The translations under genes and the position numbers were made by a program. A DNA stretch of 64,000 nucleotides from IMG/VR virus record IMGVR_UViG_3300020360_000085, positions 64,001-128,000 of that record, one strand, 5' to 3'. The notes below the pieces were generated by a model. It did no database searches. It was not told the DNA's origin and worked only from the letters and a program-made list of their open reading frames with translations. The DNA comes from a virus (Duplodnaviria > Caudoviricetes). Shown one piece after another: positions 16,340-29,783 of this stretch. How positions within the stretch are numbered: the first letter of the stretch is position 1; every line of letters starts with the position of its first letter.

Positions 16340-17692
16340 ATGGCAGGAAAAAATTTAGATTACTGGTATGATGAACAGATAAAAAGATATCTTATACAGA
16401 TAATCAGAATCTTTTCAAATTTTAAAGTAAGAGAATATACAGATAAAGGTGTAAACTATAATAGAGTACCCGCAAGATATGGAGATAGTAGTAGAATGGT
16501 TGCTAGTATTTTGCGTAATAATTCAGAAAATATAATTAATAGTTCGCCTTTTATTGCAGTAACTATACAAAGTATCCAACCAGCAAGAGATAGAACACAT
16601 GAACCATTCCTTGTTGATACTCAACAAGTAGCAGAAAGAGAATTTAATAAAGAAACAGGTGCTTATTCTACAGAGCAAGGTAATCTATACACCACTCAAA
16701 GATATATGCCAGTGCCATATAATATGACAATAAATGTAGATATATGGACTACAAATACAGATACAAAATTACAAATTTTAGAACAGATATTTGTTTTATT
16801 TAATCCTAGTATTCAATTACAATCTAATAGTAATCCGTTAGACTGGACTAGTGTTTTTGAGGTAGAGTTAGCAGATATTAATTGGAGTAGTAGAGCCGTA
16901 CCTGCAGGAGTAGATGAAACTTTAGACATATCTACTATGTCATTTACAAGTCCAATATGGATTAGTCCTCCTGCTAAAGTAAAAAGACAAGCAATTATAC
17001 AACGAATTATAAATGATATACATTCTACTCCTGATATAGGAGAATTAGGATATAGTGAAGACTATGCAGACTTTTTTGGTCCTACAGCAGAATTGGCAGA
17101 AGTTGTTGTTACACCTAACGATTTATATTTACAAATTACAGGCAGTACTGCAAAATTAGTTAATGCTAGTAATGTAGGCCAAAAATGGTCAGATATAATA
17201 GAAATGATGGGAGAATTAAGAACAACCAGTAAGTTAAAATTAAATATATCTGCTGATACAGATAATGAACTTAATATGCTTGTAGGAAGTGTTACTAAAA
17301 ATCCTGTAGATGATACTGCATTAATTTTTAATTTAGATACAGATACATTACCTGTTGATACATTATCAGATGTAGACAAGATTATTGACCCTACATCAAA
17401 TTATCCTGGAGACGGAACATTAGCGGCCGCAAGTACAGGACAACGATATTTAATAACAGAAGACATAGATGATTTAGGATTTCCTAATTGGGGGATAGAC
17501 GCACAGGAAAATGATATTATTTCATACGATGGTTCCAAATGGTCTGTAGTATTTGATGCAAGTGCAAATTCTGACTCAACACATTTTTTACACAATACTT
17601 TTACCTCCAAACAGTTCAAGTGGACAGGTGTAGGCTGGATAAGTAGTTATGAAGGCGAATATAGACCTGGCTACTGGAGATTAGTACTGTAA
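16340..17692 (+). CDS. gp15: Tail terminator / sheath stabiliser
   Basis: YWYDEQIKRY...IFSNF, RVPARYG, MPVPYNM, QILEQIFVLFNPS. Confidence 0.88.
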   Translation: MAGKNLDYWYDEQIKRYLIQIIRIFSNFKVREYTDKGVNYNRVPARYGDSSRMVASILRNNSENIINSSPFIAVTIQSIQPARDRTHEPFLVDTQQVAEREFNKETGAYSTEQGNLYTTQRYMPVPYNMTINVDIWTTNTDTKLQILEQIFVLFNPSIQLQSNSNPLDWTSVFEVELADINWSSRAVPAGVDETLDISTMSFTSPIWISPPAKVKRQAIIQRIINDIHSTPDIGELGYSEDYADFFGPTAELAEVVVTPNDLYLQITGSTAKLVNASNVGQKWSDIIEMMGELRTTSKLKLNISADTDNELNMLVGSVTKNPVDDTALIFNLDTDTLPVDTLSDVDKIIDPTSNYPGDGTLAAASTGQRYLITEDIDDLGFPNWGIDAQENDIISYDGSKWSVVFDASANSDSTHFLHNTFTSKQFKWTGVGWISSYEGEYRPGYWRLVL

Positions 17693-18123
17693 TGAAAACA
17701 ACGGCGGCAGGAGTTGTATTTCTTGCCAAAGATACTGGCAGATGCTTATTACAACTCAGAGAAGGAACAAAACGATTTAATCATACCTGGGGATTCTGGG
17801 GAGGTATAATTGAAAAAGGAGAAACTCCTTTTGAATGCATACAAAGAGAACTAGATGAAGAAATTGGATTTATTCCAGAACTTCAAAAACTTAATCCAAT
17901 AGACGTTTACCAAAGCAAAGATAAAAATTTTTATTACTACAGTTTTGTATATGTTGTAGATAATGAATTTATGCCCCCAAAACTAAATGGCGAAAGTGCC
18001 GGTTATGCCTGGGTAAACATAGGACAATGGCCTAAACCTCTTCATAATGGTTCTAAAATCACTCTTTTTAAAAATGGTGGAACAGAAAAACTGCACACTA
18101 TATTAGAAATCAATAAAGAATAA
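17692..18123 (+). CDS. Nudix hydrolase
   Basis: Nudix box GGIIEKGETPFECIQRELDEEIG. Confidence 0.93.
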   Translation: MKTTAAGVVFLAKDTGRCLLQLREGTKRFNHTWGFWGGIIEKGETPFECIQRELDEEIGFIPELQKLNPIDVYQSKDKNFYYYSFVYVVDNEFMPPKLNGESAGYAWVNIGQWPKPLHNGSKITLFKNGGTEKLHTILEINKE

Positions 18124-18764: not shown

Positions 18765-19346
18765 TTATTTAAATGTGGTTGCTTTCATGCTACAAACAAT
18801 TCTATTTTGCTTATTGTCAGAATTTACAGCACTATGCCAACTAGTTGGGCCTGTTCTAAATAAAAATAAACTTCCAGGATTTCCTCCAACAATTTTATAA
18901 GGTTTATCTGCATCTGGATTATCATATATTTCTGTGCCAAAAACATATTCAGGATTACAATAAATTACACCTCTTACAAAAGGATTATTTGGAGTTTCTT
19001 CGTCTCCATAATAGTCATTATGCATTTGTAATTTTTGATTTTTACTTATCATATTTTCTACACCATAAAAATATTTACAATTGATGTCCCAAACATTATT
19101 AATTGCTTCAACAATATCTTTATTTTTTTGTCTAATTTTTTCTATAATATCCAGATAAGCAGATACATGTTGGGGACCATCATTATTAAATTCTTTTTGA
19201 GATAAATTTTCCTGTAACTTAATATAATTATCAAATATATTTTTATTATCTAAACCTGTAATAAAATTTTCTATTACAATATATTCAAAAGGATATGTGT
19301 TTAAATTTTCCCTACAAATTTTATCAATATTTTGTACTTGAACCAT
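18765..19346 (-). CDS. Fe(II)/2OG oxygenase
   Basis: YPFEYIVIENF, MHND (HxD), SWHSAV, RIV; TAATG overlap with the cyclase gene. Confidence 0.8.
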   Translation of the reverse strand: MVQVQNIDKICRENLNTYPFEYIVIENFITGLDNKNIFDNYIKLQENLSQKEFNNDGPQHVSAYLDIIEKIRQKNKDIVEAINNVWDINCKYFYGVENMISKNQKLQMHNDYYGDEETPNNPFVRGVIYCNPEYVFGTEIYDNPDADKPYKIVGGNPGSLFLFRTGPTSWHSAVNSDNKQNRIVCSMKATTFK

Positions 19347-21415
19347 TATTTAGAAGTTTTCCTTTCAACACCGTCCCATTCTCCTGCAGGCATAGGTTGT
19401 TTTATTCTTTGTGCATATAAATTTGCAAGAGTATTATTCCAGTCATGTTCTTTTATTACTTCTATTTGATGAGCACATTCGGCCCATTCCCTATTTTGAT
19501 AAGCATCTACCATTCTGTTTATTACTCTAACCTCTTTTGTGTCTTTTAAAATTGTATAAATTGTTACAGGTGCAGTTTGGCCTTTTACTGCAATTTTATC
19601 TAACATTACAAGTCCTTGTGGTGAAACTATTTGTTTTAATGTATGTTCTGTAAACATAAAAAATACACCATACTCTTTGGTTTGTGCTTCTAAACGAGCC
19701 GCTAAATTTACACTATCTCCTAAAACTGTATAATCAAAACGTTGATTAGAGCCCATGTTACCTACTACGGCATCACCTGTGTTTATTCCTATACCAACAC
19801 CCAACTCCATTAATCCATCTTCTTTAAGTTCTTTATTAAGTTTTTTAAGTTCTACTTCCATTTCTTGTGCTGTCTCAATAGCCAATTGGGCATGATTATC
19901 TACATCAAGTGGAGCATTCCATATTGCCATTAAGGCATCTCCTATGTATTTGTCTATTGTGCCTTCTTTTTGCATAACAAGATCTGTCATAGGTGTCATA
20001 TATCTGTTAATTAATTTTCCTAAACCTTCAGGATCTGTTTTAAATTGTTCTGATATTGGAGTGAATCCACGAATATCTGAAAACAAATATGTCATTGTTC
20101 TTGTATCTCCGCCTAAACGTAATAGACTTGGATCTTTTTGTAACTTTTTAACCATTGCAGGTGCAAGATAATGTTCGAATTGTTTTTTAATTTGTTCACG
20201 TAATTTATATTGTTTGTAAAAGTTATTAAATGCCGCCTGTGTAAAAACTAAAAATCCACTTAGTACAGGGAAAGTAGCATCTAATAAAACTAAATCGCTT
20301 GTATATTTGTAAACACTATAATAGGATATTCCCCCTAATACTGCAAGTGATATAGGTGCAGTCCAAAGTAATGGCAGTTTATAAACTGCTAAAGCAATTA
20401 GAATCATAGTCAAGAAAGCAACGACCAACTCTGTGACAGCACTTAATTGGCTTCTTGTTATGTTACTGCCGTCTATAATGTTTTGTATCATATGAGCCTG
20501 TATATGTTGTGGATAAAGATTACCACGTGGTGTAGGTACAGGGTTTGCAACACCCTCAGCAGTAACACCTATGACTACCCATTTACCCATTAAATCTGGA
20601 ATACTATCAGCACCTTCATATTCTATTTCTTCAAAAGAATTATTAAAACGTATATAAGCAGTACCATCTGGTTGTGTAACTACAGGAGGAAAAGGAGGAA
20701 TAGCCACTTCTTGTATTCCTATTTCAGATGTTTTTATCATATAACTGGGTTTACCTGTGTGTACCCTTAACATCTCTACTGCAAAACTAGGATAAATTTT
20801 GTCTTCTACAGTAATAGCAAGAGGGTATGTTCTAGTTTGATTATCTGGTTGAGGGGCAGATGCTAAAACACCTTTACCATTACTTACAACTTCCAATATG
20901 GGAATATTAGTAACTAAATTAGGCCATTTAAGTAAATAATCTTTTGCTGGTACAGGACCTATTGTACCTGTACCTATATGAGGACCTGTACTTTTTATTC
21001 CTTTAACACTTGGCGTTTGACTTAAAACATTTACATTTACAGGATTTTTTCTAGCACCTGGAATGTTAATAACATTTTGTTGTAATATTCCTGCAAAACT
21101 TTCGTCTCCCTGAAATCTATCTGCTTCAGGAAACATAATTGTCCAACCTACGGGACCACTATTTTTCATAGCAACGTCTACTACAAGTTGTGCATAATAT
21201 TGCCTTGGAAATGGATACTGTCCGTATTTTGCTAAACTTTTTTCGCCAATGTTTATTAATACAACATTATCACTTTGTTTTACTTCATCTAATTGTTGAT
21301 AACTGTCAAAAACTTGACTTCTAAGACTTTGTAATGGTGTAGGATCTACTATTCTTAAGCCAAGTAAAAGTGCAATAGATAGGACCACTGCATAACCACT
21401 ATATAACCATTTCAT
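19346..21415 (-). CDS. Membrane-bound CHASE2-domain class III adenylate cyclase
   Basis: N-terminal TM, CHASE2 (GQYPFPRQYYA), three TMs, then FSDIRGFT, DKYIGDALM, GIGINTG, YTVLGDSVNLAARLE; the Lys points to ATP specificity. Confidence 0.93.
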   Translation of the reverse strand: MKWLYSGYAVVLSIALLLGLRIVDPTPLQSLRSQVFDSYQQLDEVKQSDNVVLINIGEKSLAKYGQYPFPRQYYAQLVVDVAMKNSGPVGWTIMFPEADRFQGDESFAGILQQNVINIPGARKNPVNVNVLSQTPSVKGIKSTGPHIGTGTIGPVPAKDYLLKWPNLVTNIPILEVVSNGKGVLASAPQPDNQTRTYPLAITVEDKIYPSFAVEMLRVHTGKPSYMIKTSEIGIQEVAIPPFPPVVTQPDGTAYIRFNNSFEEIEYEGADSIPDLMGKWVVIGVTAEGVANPVPTPRGNLYPQHIQAHMIQNIIDGSNITRSQLSAVTELVVAFLTMILIALAVYKLPLLWTAPISLAVLGGISYYSVYKYTSDLVLLDATFPVLSGFLVFTQAAFNNFYKQYKLREQIKKQFEHYLAPAMVKKLQKDPSLLRLGGDTRTMTYLFSDIRGFTPISEQFKTDPEGLGKLINRYMTPMTDLVMQKEGTIDKYIGDALMAIWNAPLDVDNHAQLAIETAQEMEVELKKLNKELKEDGLMELGVGIGINTGDAVVGNMGSNQRFDYTVLGDSVNLAARLEAQTKEYGVFFMFTEHTLKQIVSPQGLVMLDKIAVKGQTAPVTIYTILKDTKEVRVINRMVDAYQNREWAECAHQIEVIKEHDWNNTLANLYAQRIKQPMPAGEWDGVERKTSK

Positions 21416-21433
21416 ATCTATATTTATCGTAAG

Positions 21434-21468
21434 AAAAACCTCCCTATAATTAGATTATAGAGAGGTTT
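21434..21468 (-). terminator. Terminator hairpin upstream of the cyclase late promoter
   Basis: aaacctc-cctataat-tag-attataga-gaggttt stem with U-tract on the minus strand. Confidence 0.75.
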
Positions 21469-21573
21469 CATTCTAATCTAATAGTTTTAAAGACGTCTAT
21501 TAATCGTCTGGCAAATTGTGGCTTTTAGTTTTAAGAGTCTCTAAACCACCGGGCAATCCGGGAAATCGCTCTA

Positions 21574-22107
21574 TTAGTTATTAGCAAATTCTGATATTAA
21601 ACCATTTGCTAAATCATATTGGATAGCAAGACTTTCATATAGTTTGTAATATTCTTTATCACTATTAGGTCTATGTTCGCTACCATAAAGATCTGCATCT
21701 ACAAAGTTCCAGTCTATTGAACCGTCTCTGTTAGTATTACCTTCATCACTTACTGCTTTATTAAATGCTTTTGCAAATTCAGGTCTAAATTTAGCAACTC
21801 TGTAATTAACACTTTTAGTATAAAATCCTAAATTTTCAAGTTGTAAAACTAAACTGTTCATACCAGGAAATTTTCCTGTATCTTCATACTCACCTAAAGT
21901 AATTTGCATTGGATCATCAATAACATAGTATTCGTCATCTCCAAGTATAAAATCTAAATTAGCAATAAACTCTTCAACAAGTTTTTTACCTTTTTTGAAT
22001 GCTTCAGCATCTCTAGTTCTATATTGGAAGTCATGTATTTCATGACCTTTAAGTAAGCCTGTTGGCTCTGGTTGATCGCCTAAAATTCTGTAATTTAATG
22101 TTGACAT
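21574..22107 (-). CDS. Hypothetical early protein
   Basis: 177-aa ORF, AGGAG SD, own sigma70-type promoter. Confidence 0.75.
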   Translation of the reverse strand: MSTLNYRILGDQPEPTGLLKGHEIHDFQYRTRDAEAFKKGKKLVEEFIANLDFILGDDEYYVIDDPMQITLGEYEDTGKFPGMNSLVLQLENLGFYTKSVNYRVAKFRPEFAKAFNKAVSDEGNTNRDGSIDWNFVDADLYGSEHRPNSDKEYYKLYESLAIQYDLANGLISEFANN

Positions 22108-22139
22108 ATAACTCCTACCTTATTTGTTACTATATAAAT

Positions 22140-22167
22140 ATTATAGCAAAAAACTAGAAATTGTCAA
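22140..22167 (-). promoter_or_regulatory. Sigma70-type early promoter
   Basis: TTGACA-N16-TATAAT with TGn extension. Confidence 0.7.
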
Positions 22168-22184
22168 GCCTTTTTTATATATTT

Positions 22185-22898
22185 TTAACCTGCAAATGCA
22201 CGTTCTAACATAAAATCTCCAGACTCTCCTGTGTTGCCTTCGTGCCATCCTAAGTTTGTAAATAGTTCTCTGCAATCTTTATTCATTTCTGGAGAACCGC
22301 ATACCATAACTGCGTCTCTGGTTTTATCTAAATTACTGCCTAAAACATCTGGAATATAGTTCCAAAATCTACCAGGTCTTAAATATTTTTCTCTAGTTAC
22401 TGTTTCTATATAATTAAAGTTAGGATAATCTAAACTGTTTAGTTTTTGCTTATATGCTAGTTCATTTACATTTCTTACAGTATGAAACAAGTAAACATTA
22501 TTAAACTTTTCATAGGTCTCAAAATCATGTGCAATACTTATAAAAGGTGCGATACCTGTGCCAGTAGATAGCATTACTAAATTTTGTTTTTTATTTAAAT
22601 AATCTATAACTAGACTGCCAGTACATTTCGGATTTACAATAACCTCTTCTCCAATTTGTACATTTTGTAATTTTTCTGTAAGGGGACCATTTGGAACTTT
22701 GATACTTAAGAACTCTAAATGCTCGTCATAATTTGTACTTACAATACTATATGCTCTAAGTATTGGTCTAGGATCTACATCGAGACCCATCATACAAAAC
22801 TCTCCATTTTTAAATCTAAAACTTTTATCTCTTGTGGTTTTAAAACTGAAAAGTCTATCTGAATAATGTTTGACTTCTGTAACTGTCTCTTTGTGCAT
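22185..22898 (-). CDS. fpr: Ferredoxin-NADP+ reductase (bacterial type)
   Basis: RAYSIVS, GPLT, STGTGIAPF, CGSPEM, terminal ERAF. Confidence 0.92.
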   Translation of the reverse strand: MHKETVTEVKHYSDRLFSFKTTRDKSFRFKNGEFCMMGLDVDPRPILRAYSIVSTNYDEHLEFLSIKVPNGPLTEKLQNVQIGEEVIVNPKCTGSLVIDYLNKKQNLVMLSTGTGIAPFISIAHDFETYEKFNNVYLFHTVRNVNELAYKQKLNSLDYPNFNYIETVTREKYLRPGRFWNYIPDVLGSNLDKTRDAVMVCGSPEMNKDCRELFTNLGWHEGNTGESGDFMLERAFAG

Positions 22899-22974
22899 AC
22901 AGATATTTATTTTATAGATAAAATTTCCCCTGCCATTTCTGACAGAGGAAATGTGTTTTGTAAAAAGTTAAAAC

Positions 22975-23142
22975 TTATTCACATTCTTTAGGATTTTTAG
23001 AACAATACTCCATTACCTTATTAAGCAATTTTACTTGTTCAATAAGTTCTGAAATGTCCTCATCGTCCTGCTCACCCTCATCTGAGGATTTTTTGTCTTC
23101 CTTCTTAGGTAGGAAAACTTTTGCTAAGAATGAGCGTTCTAC
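22975..23142 (-). CDS. Start-less -1 frame extension of the upstream lipoprotein (55 aa)
   Basis: VERSFLAKVFLPKKEDKK...KVMEYCSKNPKECE* begins exactly at an A_AAA_AAG site; not in ORF track. Confidence 0.6.
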   Translation of the reverse strand, partial: VERSFLAKVFLPKKEDKKSSDEGEQDDEDISELIEQVKLLNKVMEYCSKNPKECE

Positions 23143-23438
23143 TTTTTTTCTTCTTCTGGTTTTTTATCTTTGGAATCTTCTTGAAGTTCATCAGTTTGTT
23201 CATCAATTTCATCTGAAACTGTTTTAACAACACCTGCTCCTACTTCTAAAGCAGTCGTAGAAATATCAGAAACATCTTCTGCTACTGATACTGCCACATC
23301 TGATGCAGTTCCAACTACCACGTCTACTGTGTTAGTTGCTAACTCTTTACCGCCCTCGATTACTGCTCCAACTGAGGCACAACCTTGTGCGAAAATTACA
23401 AAGAATAAACCTAAGAACATATTTTTTAGTCCTTCCAT
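23139..23438 (-). CDS. Lipoprotein
   Basis: Start MEGLKN after AAGGAG SD; lipobox FAQGC; GATAAATA box at 23489-23496. Confidence 0.8.
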   Translation of the reverse strand: MEGLKNMFLGLFFVIFAQGCASVGAVIEGGKELATNTVDVVVGTASDVAVSVAEDVSDISTTALEVGAGVVKTVSDEIDEQTDELQEDSKDKKPEEEKK

Positions 23439-23500
23439 TTTATTCTCCTTATATAAGGTGTAATAAGCCATCTGCTATATTACACTAATATTTATCGGAA

Positions 23501-24667
23501 TTAAAACATCATATTAAGTTTTTTGTAAAACTTATTGTAATGTTTAGACCCGTCTTTAAAATCATTATAATGATCTCGATTATATTCTAAAACATCATAC
23601 ATTTCGTATAACATTTCAGTCAACTCTTGATGTGATGTATTTGATAATTTTTGATATAGATTATATAATTTATTTTTTCTCGAGTTATGATCCTTGTCGT
23701 TATCATAACTTTCGTCCCACCATTTATAAAATGTTTTAAATCCACAATCTTTAAGATAGGATAATGCTCCAGGTTGTGCATGTAATATAAATGGATTTGC
23801 CATAACTATAGCCTTGGTACATTTATCTGTCATATCTAATTCATAATCGTTATAATCTTTACATGTATGTTCAAAATATGTTTCACTAACAAAATGTATA
23901 TAAGTATCTAAAAATGCTTGTCTTTCAGTATCACTTTTAAGTCTTGGTAAAAAAGGGTCGCTGGAATTTGTATTATGTAAGTCATATATCCATGGTAAAC
24001 TATTTAAAAGTTCATCACTTAAATTTAATTCGTCTTTATAACTTTCTATAGACATATCTTTAAATGGAGTATAACAAGAAACTAAATTTTGTTGCTTTAA
24101 ATTATTATCAAAAATAAATTTACATAACTCTGCTCTATGTTTATAAGGCTTACCCATAAAAGTTAATAATTTTTTAGGTCGCTGTATTTTATTTTTTATT
24201 TGCTCATATTGTTTATCTATAATATCCTCAGGCTGACATAATGGCATAAAGACTTGATATGGCAATGTAGCAACATTATACTCCTTGGGCTCAAAACTTT
24301 TTATGTTTCCTACTATAAGTATTACATCATTTTTATTTAAATTATATTTTAGCATGGTATTACAAATTATTTTATGTGTAAAATCTCTGTTACCAAAATA
24401 TCTATATGTAATATCATAACTTTCACTAGTAAAATCAAAAAGTAATTTACATTTGTTATCCTTTATGTCTTTTAAAATATCTTGTGGAATATTATAAAAG
24501 TATTCTTTTGCTTTTAATATTAATTGTTTATCTCGTTGAGGAGGACATGTGATTTGCATATCTATTTGAATAGGATACACATACTTTTGATTTGTATTAT
24601 TTTTAATGGGTAATCGTAGAAGATCTTCTACTGAAGAATTCATTTGACCTGTATGAGTAAACAACAT
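23501..24667 (-). CDS. Hypothetical protein, possibly glycosyltransferase-like
   Basis: Start refined to MLFTHT using the CATAAATA box 5 nt upstream; C-terminal HFVSETYF...TDKCTKAI....PFIL......L..GFKTF..WWDESYD block. Confidence 0.6.
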   Translation of the reverse strand: MLFTHTGQMNSSVEDLLRLPIKNNTNQKYVYPIQIDMQITCPPQRDKQLILKAKEYFYNIPQDILKDIKDNKCKLLFDFTSESYDITYRYFGNRDFTHKIICNTMLKYNLNKNDVILIVGNIKSFEPKEYNVATLPYQVFMPLCQPEDIIDKQYEQIKNKIQRPKKLLTFMGKPYKHRAELCKFIFDNNLKQQNLVSCYTPFKDMSIESYKDELNLSDELLNSLPWIYDLHNTNSSDPFLPRLKSDTERQAFLDTYIHFVSETYFEHTCKDYNDYELDMTDKCTKAIVMANPFILHAQPGALSYLKDCGFKTFYKWWDESYDNDKDHNSRKNKLYNLYQKLSNTSHQELTEMLYEMYDVLEYNRDHYNDFKDGSKHYNKFYKKLNMMF

Positions 24668-24693
24668 AATAATATTTATGTTGCATTGTAAAA

Positions 24694-25575
24694 CTAATCT
24701 TGTGTAACTGAAATAGAACAACCACCTAAGGTTGCACAGGTTTGTGTCAATGTATATGTTTGTCCTACGGAGTTGTGTGATTGATTTAGATATAAATCTG
24801 TTCCATAACTACCATATAAATTAATAGTTGCCGTATGAGCACCATTTTTTCTTTGTTTTATCCAAACATCATTATTATCATTATAGATATTTAGGTTTAA
24901 TGTTTTACTTCCATTTTGTAATTGTCCAGCATAAACTTCGTTACCGTCACCAAATATGTTTACATACATGTTGTGATTTATACTGCTACTATCTTGTTTT
25001 TGGCCTGCTTTAAAGTCATTGTTGTCGCCATGTATATCTAATCGCACAAGATTTCCACCTGGTTCATTATAATCATATGACCAAGAAGTGTTTCCGTTAC
25101 TAGAATTTTTATCTAAAAACCAACCTTGACCAACCATTACATCATTACTATTACCTTCTAAATGAAATTCTACTTTGCTTTCATTACAACTGTTGTAACT
25201 ACATTTTTGCCATATTTGTAATGTGTTACTATCTCCGTCTATATCTCCGCCTTGATCATGTCCTTGACCCCAAGCACTTGAATAACCTATATAAAAATTA
25301 TTACCTTCTTGTAATATTGCTATTTCGTTTGATTGTCCATCTAAACTAAAGTTAATGTCATTATCATATCCATCTTGTAATACTCTTAAAATATTATTAC
25401 TAGAATCTGCACTTACTATACCTAAATCTATATCAATAATATTATTATACCCTTCTTGATTGGCTTCAATAATTACATTATCTCCTGCTTGTTCAATTAA
25501 AACTTCCTGGTCATCTGCTAATAAAACAGATGGTATTAATAATAATCCTGCTAATATGTTTCTTAATATTTTCAT
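24694..25575 (-). CDS. Secreted curlin-repeat protein
   Basis: Signal peptide; repeated I.Q.G..N motifs (IEQAGDN, VLQDGYDN, ILQEGNN). Confidence 0.75.
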   Translation of the reverse strand: MKILRNILAGLLLIPSVLLADDQEVLIEQAGDNVIIEANQEGYNNIIDIDLGIVSADSSNNILRVLQDGYDNDINFSLDGQSNEIAILQEGNNFYIGYSSAWGQGHDQGGDIDGDSNTLQIWQKCSYNSCNESKVEFHLEGNSNDVMVGQGWFLDKNSSNGNTSWSYDYNEPGGNLVRLDIHGDNNDFKAGQKQDSSSINHNMYVNIFGDGNEVYAGQLQNGSKTLNLNIYNDNNDVWIKQRKNGAHTATINLYGSYGTDLYLNQSHNSVGQTYTLTQTCATLGGCSISVTQD

Positions 25576-26748
25576 CTAATTCTGTATAATTGTTATTACA
25601 CTTCCCTCACAACTGTTTAGGCACATTATTGTAGAACCTAAATCTTTATCTGTTACAAATATTTGTGCAGATGTACCCTTTTTAAACTTTAAACTAACGT
25701 AATTATTAGCCTGCCTTAAAAAGAACACTTTACCATCAACATCTGGTAAAATATTAAATTGGTTATCTGCTTGTAATCCAAAATTTCTATCTATTAATCT
25801 ATCACTAAAGTTTTGTTCCTGTTGGCCGTCCAAAGCATCTGCTTCTTCTATAATCTCCAACAAATCTCTCAAAAAGTCAACTTCTAAGAAATTAATATCT
25901 AATTCTGTAAATTCTAACTCCTGTTCGGCTTCTGCCGCCAAATCTTGTCCTTCTAAAAAGTCAATGTCTAAGTCTGAAAAGTCTAACAATCCACCATCTC
26001 CTTTAAGTGCTTCTTGTTGTTCTTCTTCTGCCTGTACAATCTCTTCAGGTTTACTCACAATAAACATATTGTCTATCATATTCAAATCCAGGTCTACTAA
26101 AACAACTGGATTTGTTGGAGGTGTTTCAAACGTACTAACCATTACAGCCTGAAATGCCTCTTCAAGTATTACTGTACCACCGTCATTAGTCACAGTTATA
26201 CTCCCTGAAGGTCTACAACCTTCTTCTAATTTTACCCTATCATTACAATTTGCATCTGGTAATAATATTACTAAACTTCTACCCAGTTCGTCAACTGTAG
26301 TGGTAAAATCAGTTCCCCTAATACCAATAGTTGCTGTAGGCGTTTCTATCATAATATTTTCTTTAGGAACAAGTCCTAAACCGCCTGTTGCAAATCGAGC
26401 CGTGCCTTGAACAAAGTTCATAGCCATTTTGCTCTTGCTTGGATCAGGATCATATACATACTCTGTAATCTCTACAACTGTATGTTCTGTCAAACTAATC
26501 TGTGTTTGGTCTACAAATTCGATTTTTAATCTACCGTTTTCGGTTTCTACATTATCATAACTTTGTACACCTGTGTCTAAAATAGCATCAAGTTGTTCTC
26601 CTGACGTCCTATAAATGGCGCCAGGAGTACCACTTTGCTCCGAAACGCCGCCAATCTCTTCAGCGGCGTTCAGAATAGGTGTTAGCAAAAATGCCAGAGC
26701 GAATAATAATTTAGTCGGTCTGTTTAATGCTAACTGATGCATTTTCAC
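25576..26748 (-). CDS. Secreted FecR-domain protein
   Basis: Signal peptide; FVDQTQISLTEHT, GTARFATG, IETPTATIGIRGTDF. Confidence 0.85.
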   Translation of the reverse strand: MKMHQLALNRPTKLLFALAFLLTPILNAAEEIGGVSEQSGTPGAIYRTSGEQLDAILDTGVQSYDNVETENGRLKIEFVDQTQISLTEHTVVEITEYVYDPDPSKSKMAMNFVQGTARFATGGLGLVPKENIMIETPTATIGIRGTDFTTTVDELGRSLVILLPDANCNDRVKLEEGCRPSGSITVTNDGGTVILEEAFQAVMVSTFETPPTNPVVLVDLDLNMIDNMFIVSKPEEIVQAEEEQQEALKGDGGLLDFSDLDIDFLEGQDLAAEAEQELEFTELDINFLEVDFLRDLLEIIEEADALDGQQEQNFSDRLIDRNFGLQADNQFNILPDVDGKVFFLRQANNYVSLKFKKGTSAQIFVTDKDLGSTIMCLNSCEGSVITIIQN

Positions 26749-27538
26749 TGTCTAAGTCTACGTTAATTACACCTTTACATGCTGGTGTACAGGTTGCTGT
26801 CATATCTTGAGTGAACTGAAAATCTCCATCACTACCGTTTAACACAACTGTTAAACTTTGACCGCTATTACCACTTTGCTTAGTAGCAAACTTGTTGTCG
26901 TCTCCTGTTATTTCCATATTCCATACAGCATTATCTGTATTTACTATGATGCCAGACATTGAACTTGTTCCAGTACAATTTGTACCACAACTTTCGCCTT
27001 GGCCTTGAGCCGCCCAAACGTTGCTATTTGTAAATGAACCATCGAAATCATTTCGATCGCCAAGTATTACTAAGTCAAAATTTAAATATTCAGCACTTGC
27101 AGAACTACCAATGTCAACATCAAAAAGGTTTGAATCACCTTGAATGTCAACAAGCATATCTGCTTCGTCACTGCTACCTGAACTACCAATATTCATGTCC
27201 CAGACATTACTATCACCTAAGAAGTAAAAATCTAAAACAGATGATCCACTACCATCAAGGACCCAACTACCAAACATGTCGTTATTATTACCGTCTTGTA
27301 TCAAGTCTAAAATTAAACTTGAACCAGTAAGAGTAAGATCACTGTTTTGTGATGCGTCACCTGATAAAGTGTTTCCATAGCCAGCCTGTAAGATGGTCAA
27401 TGTGAGGTTATCACCTTCTTGATCCAATAACACTTCGTTATCGTCTGCAAGAATTGGACCAGCCATAAGGCATGCAAAAGCGAAGACACTGACTGCTAAT
27501 TTACTTAAAAATTTACTTGTCTTCATTATTTTCTCCAA
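26711..27538 (-). CDS. Secreted curlin-repeat protein
   Basis: Signal peptide; LDQEGDN, ILQAGYGN, LIQDGNNN, IQGDSN repeats. Confidence 0.75.
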   Translation of the reverse strand: MEKIMKTSKFLSKLAVSVFAFACLMAGPILADDNEVLLDQEGDNLTLTILQAGYGNTLSGDASQNSDLTLTGSSLILDLIQDGNNNDMFGSWVLDGSGSSVLDFYFLGDSNVWDMNIGSSGSSDEADMLVDIQGDSNLFDVDIGSSASAEYLNFDLVILGDRNDFDGSFTNSNVWAAQGQGESCGTNCTGTSSMSGIIVNTDNAVWNMEITGDDNKFATKQSGNSGQSLTVVLNGSDGDFQFTQDMTATCTPACKGVINVDLDSENASVSIKQTD

Positions 27539-28550
27539 TATTGGTTATACTATCATTCTTTAATAGAATGCGTTTCCATAAAGGTATTGAACTAGGGTCT
27601 TTGGAAAATGCTTCGACATCCTCCGCGTCCGGAAGAACGCCTGAATCTTTGAGACTCATCCAGTATGCCTGCTCTTGAGCGGCTACTTGATCGTCCCAAT
27701 CTTCTGGATAAACAATCTTCCAATATCCTCTTTCATCACCTTGAGTAATAAGTTCTAACACCGCGGCCTCGATCGCTGATCGGACTGCGTATGTTACACT
27801 TTCATTCTGTGTCATTCCGCTCTCTAGTTCAAGTAATTTGGTATCCATATCTAAAAATCTAAATACATCTCCTGCTTGACCTGAACTTAATACGGTCTTG
27901 CTTGTTTGCACGTTGAGTATCACTTCGCCAGTGAGTGTGCTTACTGCACGAAGTGAAACCACAATGCTATCCCTACGATACTGGTTTGTTGTACCAATAC
28001 CGAGATATCTTGCCCCTGTACCTCCTGTTTCAATATTAGTGTCATATCCTACAATACCACCTTCTAATATCATACCAGCAAATAACATTGGCTGTAGTTC
28101 TTGAAACTCGTCTTTACCTGCCTGTTTGGCTTGCTCAGATCGAGTGCTTCGAACTATTTGTCTTTCTCTAACTAAGTTATCTAAACCTAGTCCTCTTTCA
28201 ACTACTCTAAACCAAGTTCCTTTTGGATTTTCTCCTGAACCTGCCGCCTTTAGAGCGTCTATTAATAAACTTTTTGCGTCTTGAGTAACTGCTGTACTAA
28301 AACTTGCAACATTATCTTGGCTTTTCCTTTGTCCTGTTCCATCTCCAAATTGATAAACAGCAACCACAGGCATGTTTTCTGCTGGAGGCAGATACCTTAA
28401 CTTCCTGTACGTAGGTAGTTCTACTTTTTTAGGCTCTTCAACACATTCTAAAAAATCTGTTTTACATGCCTGATCGCCTGGTATAGCGATACTGGCACAC
28501 CCGCTTAAATATAACACACCTATAAATGCTATTAATATTTTTTTATACAA
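27513..28550 (-). CDS. csgG: Curli secretion pore lipoprotein CsgG
   Basis: Lipobox LSGC; VAVYQF.D.TGQRK, FSTAVTQ, WFRVVER, LVRERQIVRS, EGGIVGYDTN, GGTGARYLGIG, QYRRD. Confidence 0.93.
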   Translation of the reverse strand: MYKKILIAFIGVLYLSGCASIAIPGDQACKTDFLECVEEPKKVELPTYRKLRYLPPAENMPVVAVYQFGDGTGQRKSQDNVASFSTAVTQDAKSLLIDALKAAGSGENPKGTWFRVVERGLGLDNLVRERQIVRSTRSEQAKQAGKDEFQELQPMLFAGMILEGGIVGYDTNIETGGTGARYLGIGTTNQYRRDSIVVSLRAVSTLTGEVILNVQTSKTVLSSGQAGDVFRFLDMDTKLLELESGMTQNESVTYAVRSAIEAAVLELITQGDERGYWKIVYPEDWDDQVAAQEQAYWMSLKDSGVLPDAEDVEAFSKDPSSIPLWKRILLKNDSITNIGENNEDK

Positions 28551-28551
28551 C

Positions 28552-29079
28552 TTATCCGCCTGATATTTGTCCTATCCCTATTGGAATCTCAATCGTTGTT
28601 ATTGTTCCATCAGGATCAACAATGGTTAAAACAATTACCTCTAATCCGTCTGCATTTGTAGTTACAGTATAAGAAACATTATTGCCTTCTATTGTAAATG
28701 CGCCACTTGTAGCACCTGTACATTGAACAACTGTTGCTGGATCACAAAACATACTATCTACTAAACCTTTAGAAATTTGAGAGTATATTCTACTTTCTAA
28801 GTTTCTAATAAATTTATTAATTGTACTGTTAGCATCTTCTCTTTCAGCACGTCTTAATGCTTCTTCTATATCACTTTTAATTTTATCTCTACGGCCTTTT
28901 TCCTGGTTTTCTATTGTTAGATAATGAGCACCAGTTCCTGAGCCACTAAAACTTGGATTTTTAAATTTGTGCTTTATTTCGTCTGCACTTAATTCTGCAA
29001 CAAACAAAACACCCATAATTATGAATAAACTTCCTATTATTGCATTTGAAAGTCTATTATTAATTTTTGCTTCATTCAT
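28552..29079 (-). CDS. csgF: Curli assembly protein CsgF-like
   Basis: KFKNPSFSG.G, FIRNLESRIYSQIS, TITTIEIP; adjacent to csgG. Confidence 0.85.
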   Translation of the reverse strand: MNEAKINNRLSNAIIGSLFIIMGVLFVAELSADEIKHKFKNPSFSGSGTGAHYLTIENQEKGRRDKIKSDIEEALRRAEREDANSTINKFIRNLESRIYSQISKGLVDSMFCDPATVVQCTGATSGAFTIEGNNVSYTVTTNADGLEVIVLTIVDPDGTITTIEIPIGIGQISGG

Positions 29080-29080
29080 T

Positions 29081-29374
29081 TTAATTTTCCTGCTCTTTTA
29101 TTTTTTCAAGAGCCTCCTTTTCCTCGGCATCTTTCAAGACTTCCTGTCTTGCTCTATATTCGAGAACAACATTTACTTTTTGTTGTAGCCTTATAAGATC
29201 TTGATCAAGCATTCTAAATTGATCAATAACTCTTATAAGTTCCATGTGCATTTTACTAAGTTCTGGTTTTATATCATTGTTGATATATTTCCATACATAG
29301 TAAATAAAATATCCTAATCCAACAACTGCAACCACAGGAAAGCCAAAGTCAGCAACTAATTTTGCTACATCCAT
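29081..29374 (-). CDS. Small single-TM coiled-coil protein
   Basis: ADFGFPVVAVVGLGYFIYYVW TM then heptads; paralog of the next gene. Confidence 0.75.
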   Translation of the reverse strand: MDVAKLVADFGFPVVAVVGLGYFIYYVWKYINNDIKPELSKMHMELIRVIDQFRMLDQDLIRLQQKVNVVLEYRARQEVLKDAEEKEALEKIKEQEN

Positions 29375-29676
29375 TAGTCTCTCCTTGCGTCTACTTTACC
29401 ATCCTCTACGAAATTTTCTGCTCTAGCAACTCTGTCTATATCTGGTCTTAAATCCAAGGCACTACTTACCAATAGATCTATTTTAACCATTTCGTTACTC
29501 ATGACTCGACCTCGAGTCTGAAGGGATTTGCAAAAACCAGTTAGGGTTTTCACTTGGCCAACGACGCCGGCCATTAATTGTTTTATAATTATAAAAATAA
29601 AGGCCCCCATTGCTAATGCTCCAGCAATAGGCAACCCTACTTCTGCAATTAATTGAAATATTTTTTCCATTTGCAC
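29374..29676 (-). CDS. Small single-TM coiled-coil protein
   Basis: AEVGLPIAGALAMGAFIFIII TM; TAATG overlap; first gene after the late box at 29725-29732. Confidence 0.75.
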   Translation of the reverse strand: MQMEKIFQLIAEVGLPIAGALAMGAFIFIIIKQLMAGVVGQVKTLTGFCKSLQTRGRVMSNEMVKIDLLVSSALDLRPDIDRVARAENFVEDGKVDARRD

Positions 29677-29761
29677 ACTCTGTTTGTTTGTTTTTTAGCG
29701 AGTGCTTTACTCACCTACCACATGTATTTATCTTGTTTGCATAAGAAAATTTGCTCATGAA

Positions 29762-29783
29762 AAAAGGAGCCAAGGCTCCTTTT
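29762..29783 (-). terminator. Rho-independent terminator after tail fibre gene
   Basis: aaaaggagcc-aa-ggctcctttt. Confidence 0.85.

Follow-up and report, generated by a model that had tools for sequence, protein, structure and literature searches.

Curli-type (type VIII) secretion genes are carried as a module by very abundant ocean phages, and three papers call the function of this module a mystery. The CsgG/F part only was discussed by Zaragoza-Solas et al. (2020; PMC7029224) and Buchholz et al. (2022; PMC9004378). The full set, with a 'histidine kinase', CsgF, CsgG, CsgA/B, FecR, CsgA/B and adenylate cyclase, was described from podo- and myo-pelagiphages, together with its global distribution, its detection in metatranscriptomes and the proposal that FecR and the cyclase act in regulation (Wittmers et al., 2022; PMC9599517). 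The stretch of DNA analysed here (the window, 64,000 nt) spans positions 64,001 to 128,000 of the IMG/VR record IMGVR_UViG_3300020360_000085, a 250-kb virus record with a completeness of 66% according to CheckV, and it contains a cassette of CsgF, CsgG, curlin-like and FecR-domain genes followed by a gene for a CHASE2 adenylate cyclase. A first-pass annotation of this DNA had read the region as a candidate phage trans-envelope signalling system. As a claim of novelty, 'candidate' was overstated, because the cluster of type VIII secretion, FecR and cyclase genes and a regulatory role for it were already in Wittmers et al. (2022). The window mostly confirms that work, and holds a further member of the module published in 2022, in a variant arrangement and in a new, larger phage. 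What is added here is a link to bacterial Slam-type systems, an apparent exchange of the FecR tail, and the finding that the kinase label is not supported. With slightly better than even confidence, we favour a working model in which one conserved phage module ties surface export to the synthesis of cyclic AMP (cAMP).

All genes of the cassette and the cyclase lay on the minus strand, and every gene named by the first-pass annotation was found where that annotation had placed it. Their order was small membrane pair, CsgF, CsgG, curlin-like 1, FecR-domain protein, curlin-like 2, four inserted genes (3.3 kb) and CHASE2 cyclase. The cassette and the cyclase had been proposed to form one unit, and their co-occurrence across phages bears this out. 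Of 38 viral loci anchored on the cyclase and reaching 6 kb or more upstream, 37 carried csgG and fecR; of 27 anchored on CsgG and reaching 9 kb or more downstream, 26 had a cyclase on the same strand. The single exception among the latter is probably a contig that ends too early, and in a sibling contig the cyclase lies at 10.2 kb. The small membrane pair was present in 37/38 cyclase-anchored loci and stayed with the module even when relocated to its other side or inverted; it belongs to the module. In six loci fecR abutted or overlapped the cyclase gene, with no second curlin gene in between. The same gene order was also found in phage-like contigs, including freshwater ones, in which FecR was only 25–40% identical. 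Relatives of the cyclase occurred on at least 588 viral contigs, and the FecR protein had thousands of near-identical relatives in the databases. A megablast search of the whole region against phage records gave no match, the relatives there being found at the protein level only. Eleven contigs with a complete phage module (L047-L057) were binned to metagenome-assembled genomes (MAGs) of unrelated phyla (Rhodobacteraceae, Flavobacteriaceae, Luteolibacter, Legionellales, Pirellulales and an actinobacterium), and are probably mis-binned phage contigs.

The cyclase gene (19346..21415, minus strand) encodes a receptor protein of 689 amino acids (aa), with Pfam matches to CHASE2 (1.8e-31) and to class III cyclases (4.4e-19). 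A transmembrane (TM) helix at residues 4-23 is followed by a periplasmic CHASE2 domain (24-322), three TM helices (324-397) and a class IIIb catalytic domain (440-620). Hydropathy gave segments at 4-28, 322-357 and 373-393, and the Pfam CHASE2 match covered residues 16-341. The first-pass annotation had described a catalytically intact CHASE2 class III cyclase, and this description stood, with all six catalytic residues kept: D447 and D493 (metal), K489 (adenine), T563, and N570 and R574 (transition state). Four of these, D447, K489, D493 and R574, were invariant across 34 phage and bacterial homologues. K489 aligned with a Glu of the Synechocystis guanylate cyclase Cya2, which is Lys in the engineered adenylate cyclase form of Cya2. 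Judged by its residues, the protein is a catalytically intact class IIIb adenylate cyclase, and it was the only cyclase in the record. A single branch with 100/100 support parted the phage cyclases from the bacterial ones in the tree. To our knowledge, CHASE2 is a widespread sensor domain that has no known ligand.

The FecR-domain protein (25576..26748, minus strand; 390 aa; Pfam FecR 9.7e-11) is predicted to be secreted. It consists of a signal peptide, a FecR head (29-227), an acidic, low-confidence linker (about 235-315) and a curlin-like tail (331-389). The AlphaFold2 model had a mean pLDDT (predicted local distance difference test) of 80, and the tail was modelled with confidence as six strands of 7 residues each, repeating about every 20 aa. 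The head superposed on PupR (6OVK) with Z 14.8 and a root-mean-square deviation (rmsd) of 2.6 over 135 aligned residues. The signal peptide is of the cleavable type, and the protein has a single hydrophobic segment (14-32); neither an anti-sigma N-domain nor a membrane anchor was found, the head beginning at about residue 29. A search of the record (66% complete) for region 2 of extracytoplasmic function (ECF) sigma factors (Sigma70_r2) gave no match, in agreement with the first-pass annotation, which had recognised no such gene. By its sequence, the phage protein is thus not a classical FecR relay.

The three proteins ended alike, curlin-like 1 in SVSIKQTD, the FecR protein in VITIIQN and curlin-like 2 in SISVTQD. 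A terminal [IVL]x[IVL]xQ motif was found in 62 of 81 distinct phage FecR proteins and in 75/147 curlin-like open reading frames (ORFs), compared with 8 of 1664 other ORFs of the same loci and none of 60 bacterial FecR relatives. When the FecR tail was compared with the last 42 residues of curlin-like 1 by hhalign, the match had an E of 2.7e-4 and a probability of 42%. The curlin-like tail suggests that the FecR protein is itself exported or tethered by the pore, and so is not a free periplasmic go-between; the 'periplasmic FecR relay' of the first-pass annotation could not be upheld. Residues 29-126 of the FecR protein (window about 26371-26664, minus strand) also superposed on the retention domain of MpIBP, the Marinomonas ice-binding adhesin (5IX9), with Z 10.5, rmsd 2.3, 74 of 76 residues and 20% identity. 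In adhesins of the LapA type, the retention domain acts as a periplasmic plug for a TolC-like pore. A similar plug in the CsgG pore could be imagined for this part of the modelled FecR protein, and is offered as a lead only.

The pairing of FecR and CHASE2 is not confined to phages. A scan for the FecR head over one genome per species returned 80 loci, of which 11 phage-type MAG contigs were set aside, leaving 69 bacterial loci. The scan profile was built from a tighter alignment (A2), since the 25-sequence FecR alignment (A1) was too diverse. In 48/69 bacterial loci a protein of about 480 aa with a TPR part at its N-terminus and a beta-barrel was encoded, usually directly upstream of the FecR gene. 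Members of this barrel family matched Pfam SlipAM in 7 of 37 cases (best 5.9e-11) and TPR_Slam in 7/37, and matched other outer-membrane barrel families as well. A full-length CHASE2 cyclase adjoined in 19 of the 69 loci, and all 19 also had the Slam-like barrel; csgG, csgF and curlin genes were found in 0/69. Hidden Markov models (HMMs) built on the phage proteins recognised the bacterial ones along their full length, at E 1e-15 to 1e-30 for the FecR head and 1e-103 to 1e-147 for the full-length CHASE2 cyclase. The bacterial units were seen in Alphaproteobacteria, Myxococcota, Omnitrophota and others, and no paper describing a unit of Slam-like barrel, FecR and CHASE2 was found in the literature.

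The tails of the bacterial FecR proteins are of another kind. Pfam recognised TbpB_B_D/FHBP_C, a TbpB/fHbp-type barrel, in 2/60 of them. An iterative local profile, which may have drifted, recruited 31/60, with weak matches to fHbp-type barrels in the PDB (E 0.009-0.07). Such a barrel is a mark of Slam cargo (Grossman et al., bioRxiv 10.1101/2020.01.20.912956). It was not found on the phage FecR protein, the tail of which is the six-strand curlin-like unit. With a curlin-like tail in the phage and an fHbp-like one in some bacteria, the head appears to be conserved and the tail to be matched to the adjoining exporter. The Slam-like profile found nothing over the ORFs of about 55 phage-type loci (L001-L057), a set that excluded the window itself and the cyclase-anchored viral loci, and matched in bacterial loci only (L060-L125). 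All six window proteins that lie between the small pair and the neighbours of the FecR gene had other identities, and CsgG/F fills the outer-membrane role.

Other CHASE2 proteins have FecR neighbours as well. In Burkholderia and Pseudomonas, a CHASE2 histidine kinase has a LysM-FecR protein as its neighbour (PMC5192318), and in Sinorhizobium meliloti cyaD1, encoding a CHASE2 cyclase, lies beside the FecR-domain gene smc02177 (PMC5498481). The CHASE2 cyclases of S. meliloti require NsrA, a beta-barrel protein of the outer membrane, for signal perception (PMC7529298, PMC13001267). In a Pelagibacteraceae single-cell genome, a FecR gene was observed directly upstream of a CHASE2-SpoIIE (PP2C phosphatase) gene (L217:94-3321), and a pair of Slam-like and FecR genes on another contig (L087). 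These two pairs imply that SAR11-type cells own a FecR/CHASE2 system with a different output. Taken together, the cyclase, kinase and phosphatase cases imply that FecR proteins accompany CHASE2 sensors whatever the output domain.

On the exporter side, CsgG (27513..28550, minus strand) is an outer-membrane lipoprotein channel with a Pfam match of 4.1e-48 and an LSGC lipobox. Its residues 8-281 (274 residues) aligned with structures of E. coli CsgG at 1e-45. The FSTAV part of the constriction loop was kept, and the Tyr and Asn positions were changed relative to E. coli. A C-terminal extension of about 65 aa (residues about 282-345; window 27513-27705, minus strand) lies beyond the E. coli CsgG fold and is specific to the clade, the CsgG of HTVC008M, Melnitz and most other phages being about 270 aa long. 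The preceding gene (28552..29079, minus strand) encodes a CsgF homologue with a signal peptide and an additional immunoglobulin-like part at its C-terminus; its match to Pfam CsgF (2.9e-11) is over the family cut-off, and the additional part matched Big_9 (7.5e-4). A phmmer comparison of CsgF with PDB sequences gave nothing at E ≤ 1. Its mature N-terminus, KFKNPSFSG, is one that we take, by eye and without a tool, to resemble the pore-inserting peptide of E. coli CsgF.

Curlin-like 1 (26711..27538, minus strand; 275 aa) and curlin-like 2 (24694..25575, minus strand; 293 aa) scored 16.3 and 7.9 bits against Pfam curlin as single sequences, under the cut-off of 20.7. In the alignment of the curlin-like 1 family, a Q-x-G-x-x-N unit was repeated, with the Q, G and N columns invariant, and the family profile matched curlin subunit 8C50 of Pontibacter at E 1.5e-5 and CsgA of E. 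coli at E 0.028. The predicted fold of curlin-like 1 was a beta-solenoid. In an exhaustive structural comparison its top match was again 8C50 (Z 17.2, rmsd 8.9, 194 aligned, 22% identity), a top rank tied with other beta-helices (SufD-type helices), and Foldseek returned nothing from the PDB at E ≤ 0.001 for this model. Curlin-like 2 was assigned by HMM cross-matches with the curlin-like 1 family and by its conserved position. The family profile, predicted fold and repeat support both genes as the CsgA/B equivalents, and the first-pass statement that no csgA/B was recognised needs correction. Its companion statement on csgE agrees with the present search, in which CsgE (PF10627) had no match in the record, an absence left unproven by the 66% completeness. 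CsgE was also reported missing from the published phage modules (PMC9599517).

The small single-pass membrane proteins 1 (29374..29676, minus strand; 100 aa) and 2 (29081..29374, minus strand; 97 aa) are paralogues, and their sole match was phrog_18771, of unknown function (5e-23 and 4e-27, respectively), with no Pfam match even at E 10. Protein 1 has one TM segment by hydropathy, at the N-terminus, and a helical tail. The language-model neighbours of protein 2 were all viral hypotheticals, and the nearest named clusters were holin-like (0.85); a holin-like build is a lead only. The published label 'histidine kinase' found no support for this pair, as proteins of 97 and 100 aa with no HisKA/DHp or HATPase_c domain do not fit it.

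Signals for transcription were read from the sequence around these genes. A terminator-like hairpin with a T run (29761..29783, minus strand) closes the upstream Mtd_N tail-fibre-like gene, and a late-promoter-like box, ATAAATA (29725..29731, minus strand), is positioned 45 nt ahead of the first cassette gene. A further terminator-like hairpin (21434..21469, minus strand) lies ahead of the cyclase, with an ATAAATA box (21421..21427, minus strand) 5 nt before the start codon. Every inserted gene, like the cyclase, has its own ATAAATA box, those within the insertion being at 24673, 23489 and 22904, and no such box was found in the cassette interior. Since the count of ATAAATA over the whole window was not above chance, its significance derives from placement 5' of gene starts only and is suggestive. 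The full T4 late box, TATAAATA, was not found near the cassette, where the 7-mer alone was present. The 'late box' of the first-pass annotation therefore holds as an ATAAATA ahead of the first cassette gene and of the cyclase, and not as the full motif. In the RNA libraries of four marine studies, short contigs matched genes of the cassette, the insertion and the cyclase without mismatch, several bins of the region being uncovered. These contigs indicate presence in RNA libraries and not proven transcription, as strand, level and transcript ends are not readable from them and DNA carry-over is possible.

Under the favoured model of a module coupling export to cAMP, the phage would place a CsgG-CsgF channel in the host outer membrane late in infection, as homology suggests, and this channel would export two curlin-like solenoids able to polymerise outside the cell. 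By its architecture, the FecR protein would be handled by the same channel, with the tail exported or joined to the fibre base and the folded head remaining near the periplasmic side. The pairing of the two genes in phages and bacteria suggests that the head would act on the periplasmic CHASE2 domain of the inner-membrane cyclase, and that cAMP synthesis would report the state of export, of the fibre or of the cell surface. The half of the module made up of FecR and the cyclase would descend from, or share its origin with, a bacterial unit of Slam-like (type XI-like) barrel, FecR-headed cargo and CHASE2 sensor, and the barrel would have been replaced in the phage by CsgG/F and the tail of the cargo by curlin-like repeats. 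Of the trans-envelope signalling proposed by the first-pass annotation, the unit and its logic are backed by the comparative evidence, that is, by the linkage in phages and by the bacterial association of FecR and CHASE2 with an outer-membrane component. The free FecR relay is the part that did not stand, and nothing in the analysis supports the cues that had been suggested, superinfection and lysis timing.

Several points weigh against this model. In this phage the cyclase gene is preceded by a terminator and by a promoter-like box of its own, so that, by these signals, it is probably not co-transcribed with the cassette. No cNMP (cyclic nucleotide)-binding or GAF domain was found in the record (66% complete), and no cAMP receptor was seen in the partial SAR11 genome searched. 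The likeness of the FecR tail to curlin is modest (hhalign 42%) and comes down to a short motif, and E. coli CsgG substrates are targeted by an N-terminal segment and not by a C-terminal motif. One 120-kb viral contig (L197:9995-13534) carried the cyclase and the small membrane pair, while csgG, csgF, fecR and curlin genes were all absent for 10 kb in both directions; it hints at a closer tie of the small membrane proteins to the cyclase than to the pore. In S. meliloti, smc02177 was dispensable for perceiving the one plant signal tested (PMC5498481). The putative contact between FecR and CHASE2 is read from gene neighbourhood, which alone cannot separate signalling from shared regulation or localisation. 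A predicted complex of the FecR head (28-245) with CHASE2 (24-322), run with alignments and no control complexes, scored 0.00 and counts neither way.

A different account, following Wittmers et al. (2022), sees the module as a machine for curli-type fibres on the infected cell, with FecR, the cyclase and the small 'kinase' proteins merely regulating secretion through cAMP; the fibres would serve aggregation ('sibling capture'), the blocking of other phages, or uptake. We consider it unlikely, although the module does have the pore, CsgF and two curlin-like proteins, each of them conserved, the interpretation is published along with metatranscriptome detection (PMC9599517), and exact matches to cassette and cyclase genes were seen in the RNA-library contigs of the four marine studies (presence only). 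The cassette stands behind a phage late-type box, so that control of transcription by cAMP is not obviously needed, and the 'kinase' proteins, 97–100 aa long, have no HisKA or HATPase domain. The pairing of FecR and CHASE2 in bacteria that have no curli genes there implies that the pair was not a curli regulator by origin. Clumping was not seen in infected OM43 cultures (Buchholz et al., PMC9004378).

Buchholz et al. (2022) proposed instead that CsgG/F could act as a gated outer-membrane pore or pinholin-like device in the timing of lysis (PMC9004378), for which the small proteins would be holin-like partners and the cyclase a timer. The small membrane proteins are holin-like in build, with holin as the nearest named language-model clusters (0.85; a lead only), but in the window the module adjoins tail-fibre and neck genes with no endolysin beside it, and an outer-membrane channel of such size does not depolarise the inner membrane. 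Two conserved curlin-like cargos and a curlin-tailed FecR protein would also be left unexplained, and this explanation seems highly improbable. A little less so, and still rather improbable, is a split of the region into two functions, with FecR as a CsgE-like periplasmic adaptor that caps or feeds CsgG and the cyclase as a separate, host-manipulating gene sharing the same mobile region. No CsgE was found in the record (66% complete), the classical partners of FecR domains are periplasmic domains of outer-membrane proteins (PupR-PupB, 6OVK, was the top structural match), and the cyclase appears to be separately transcribed in the present phage. Such a split is at odds with the loci of several phages, in which FecR and cyclase genes abut or overlap, with their pairing in bacteria without CsgG, and with the retention of the cassette in 37/38 cyclase loci.

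The four inserted genes (21574..24721, minus strand) encode a 406-aa ORF, a 110-aa lipoprotein, an FNR-like flavin reductase and a 177-aa ORF. The slot between curlin-like 2 and the cyclase was variable, from 0 to 5 kb, and in the present clade usually held a small lipoprotein and often an FNR-like gene. The insertion was missing in HTVC008M, Melnitz and three other loci (L029, L030, L040), and is probably not core to the module. The lipoprotein (23139-23471, minus strand) has the lipobox FAQGC and is rich in Ala, Val and Glu; it occupied the same slot in about 20 related viral loci and may be a clade-specific accessory of the module. The 406-aa ORF had no Pfam or PHROG match. It was called with a TTG start (24643-24721, minus strand), and the ATAAATA at 24673-24679 falls inside its first 16 codons, which makes a downstream ATG near residue 19 or 27 the probable true start. 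The FNR-like gene (22185-22898, minus strand), with FAD_binding_6 and NAD_binding_1 domains and its own late-type box, recurred in several related phages at varying distances from the cyclase.

The neighbouring genes were of T4 type, encoding a gp15 tail sheath stabiliser and the Mtd_N fibre-like protein, and the carrier is a jumbo T4-like marine phage. At the cyclase end, the region is flanked by a NUDIX hydrolase gene (17692-18123, plus strand) and a weak 2-oxoglutarate-Fe(II) (2OG-Fe(II)) oxygenase-like gene (18765-19346, minus strand), a homologue of which was also found 3' of the cyclase in three related loci (L005, L032 and L039).

The closest known system is the viral T8SS of the pelagiphages (HTVC008M, Melnitz and HTVC023P-type podophages), with the same genes in the same order and a CsgG that is 43–46% identical. 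In HTVC008M and Melnitz the cyclase comes directly after the second curlin gene, whereas the present phage has the 3.3-kb insertion of four genes with late-type boxes, the CsgG tail of about 65 aa and a jumbo T4-like carrier. With the E. coli CsgBAC-CsgDEFG system, the phage module shares the CsgG channel (1e-45), CsgF and subunits with Q-x-G-x-x-N repeats. CsgE, CsgD and CsgC are missing from the phage module, the constriction loop is partly changed, FecR and the cyclase are added, and the subunits and FecR share a C-terminal motif in place of the N-terminal targeting segment. The FecA-FecR-FecI pathway has in common the FecR-domain fold (PupR, Z 14.8) and the idea of signalling from outer to inner membrane. 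Compared with that pathway, the phage FecR has no anti-sigma N-domain or anchor, no ECF sigma factor was found in the record, and a cyclase, encoded as a separate protein, provides the output.

Another related system is the NsrA-CyaD1/CyaD2/CyaK-Clr cascade of S. meliloti, in which CHASE2 cyclases need an outer-membrane barrel and the FecR gene smc02177 lies beside cyaD1; it differs in being cellular, in having the known cAMP receptor Clr and a plant protein signal, and in having no curli parts. The bacterial units of the Slam/DUF560 (type XI secretion)-like kind differ from the phage module in their TPR and barrel protein in place of CsgG/F, in a FecR tail that is not curlin-like, and in having neither fibre subunits nor the small membrane pair. 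What they share with it is a homologous FecR head, a full-length CHASE2 cyclase and the same logic of three compartments: an outer-membrane protein, a secreted protein and an inner-membrane sensor. It is tempting, though we hold this only tentatively and would not call it probable, to see a general and modular form of envelope signalling in the set of an outer-membrane exporter, an exported protein with a FecR head and a CHASE2 sensor, in which the exporter (Slam-like or CsgG/F), the matching tail and the output (cyclase, kinase or phosphatase) are swappable. FecR would then be the missing partner or ligand of CHASE2, and marine phages would install their own copy, so that cAMP would reflect the state of the infected cell's surface or of export. 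Should the FecR-headed protein indeed be the CHASE2 partner, fed by outer-membrane exporters, the phage and bacterial systems could be studied together.

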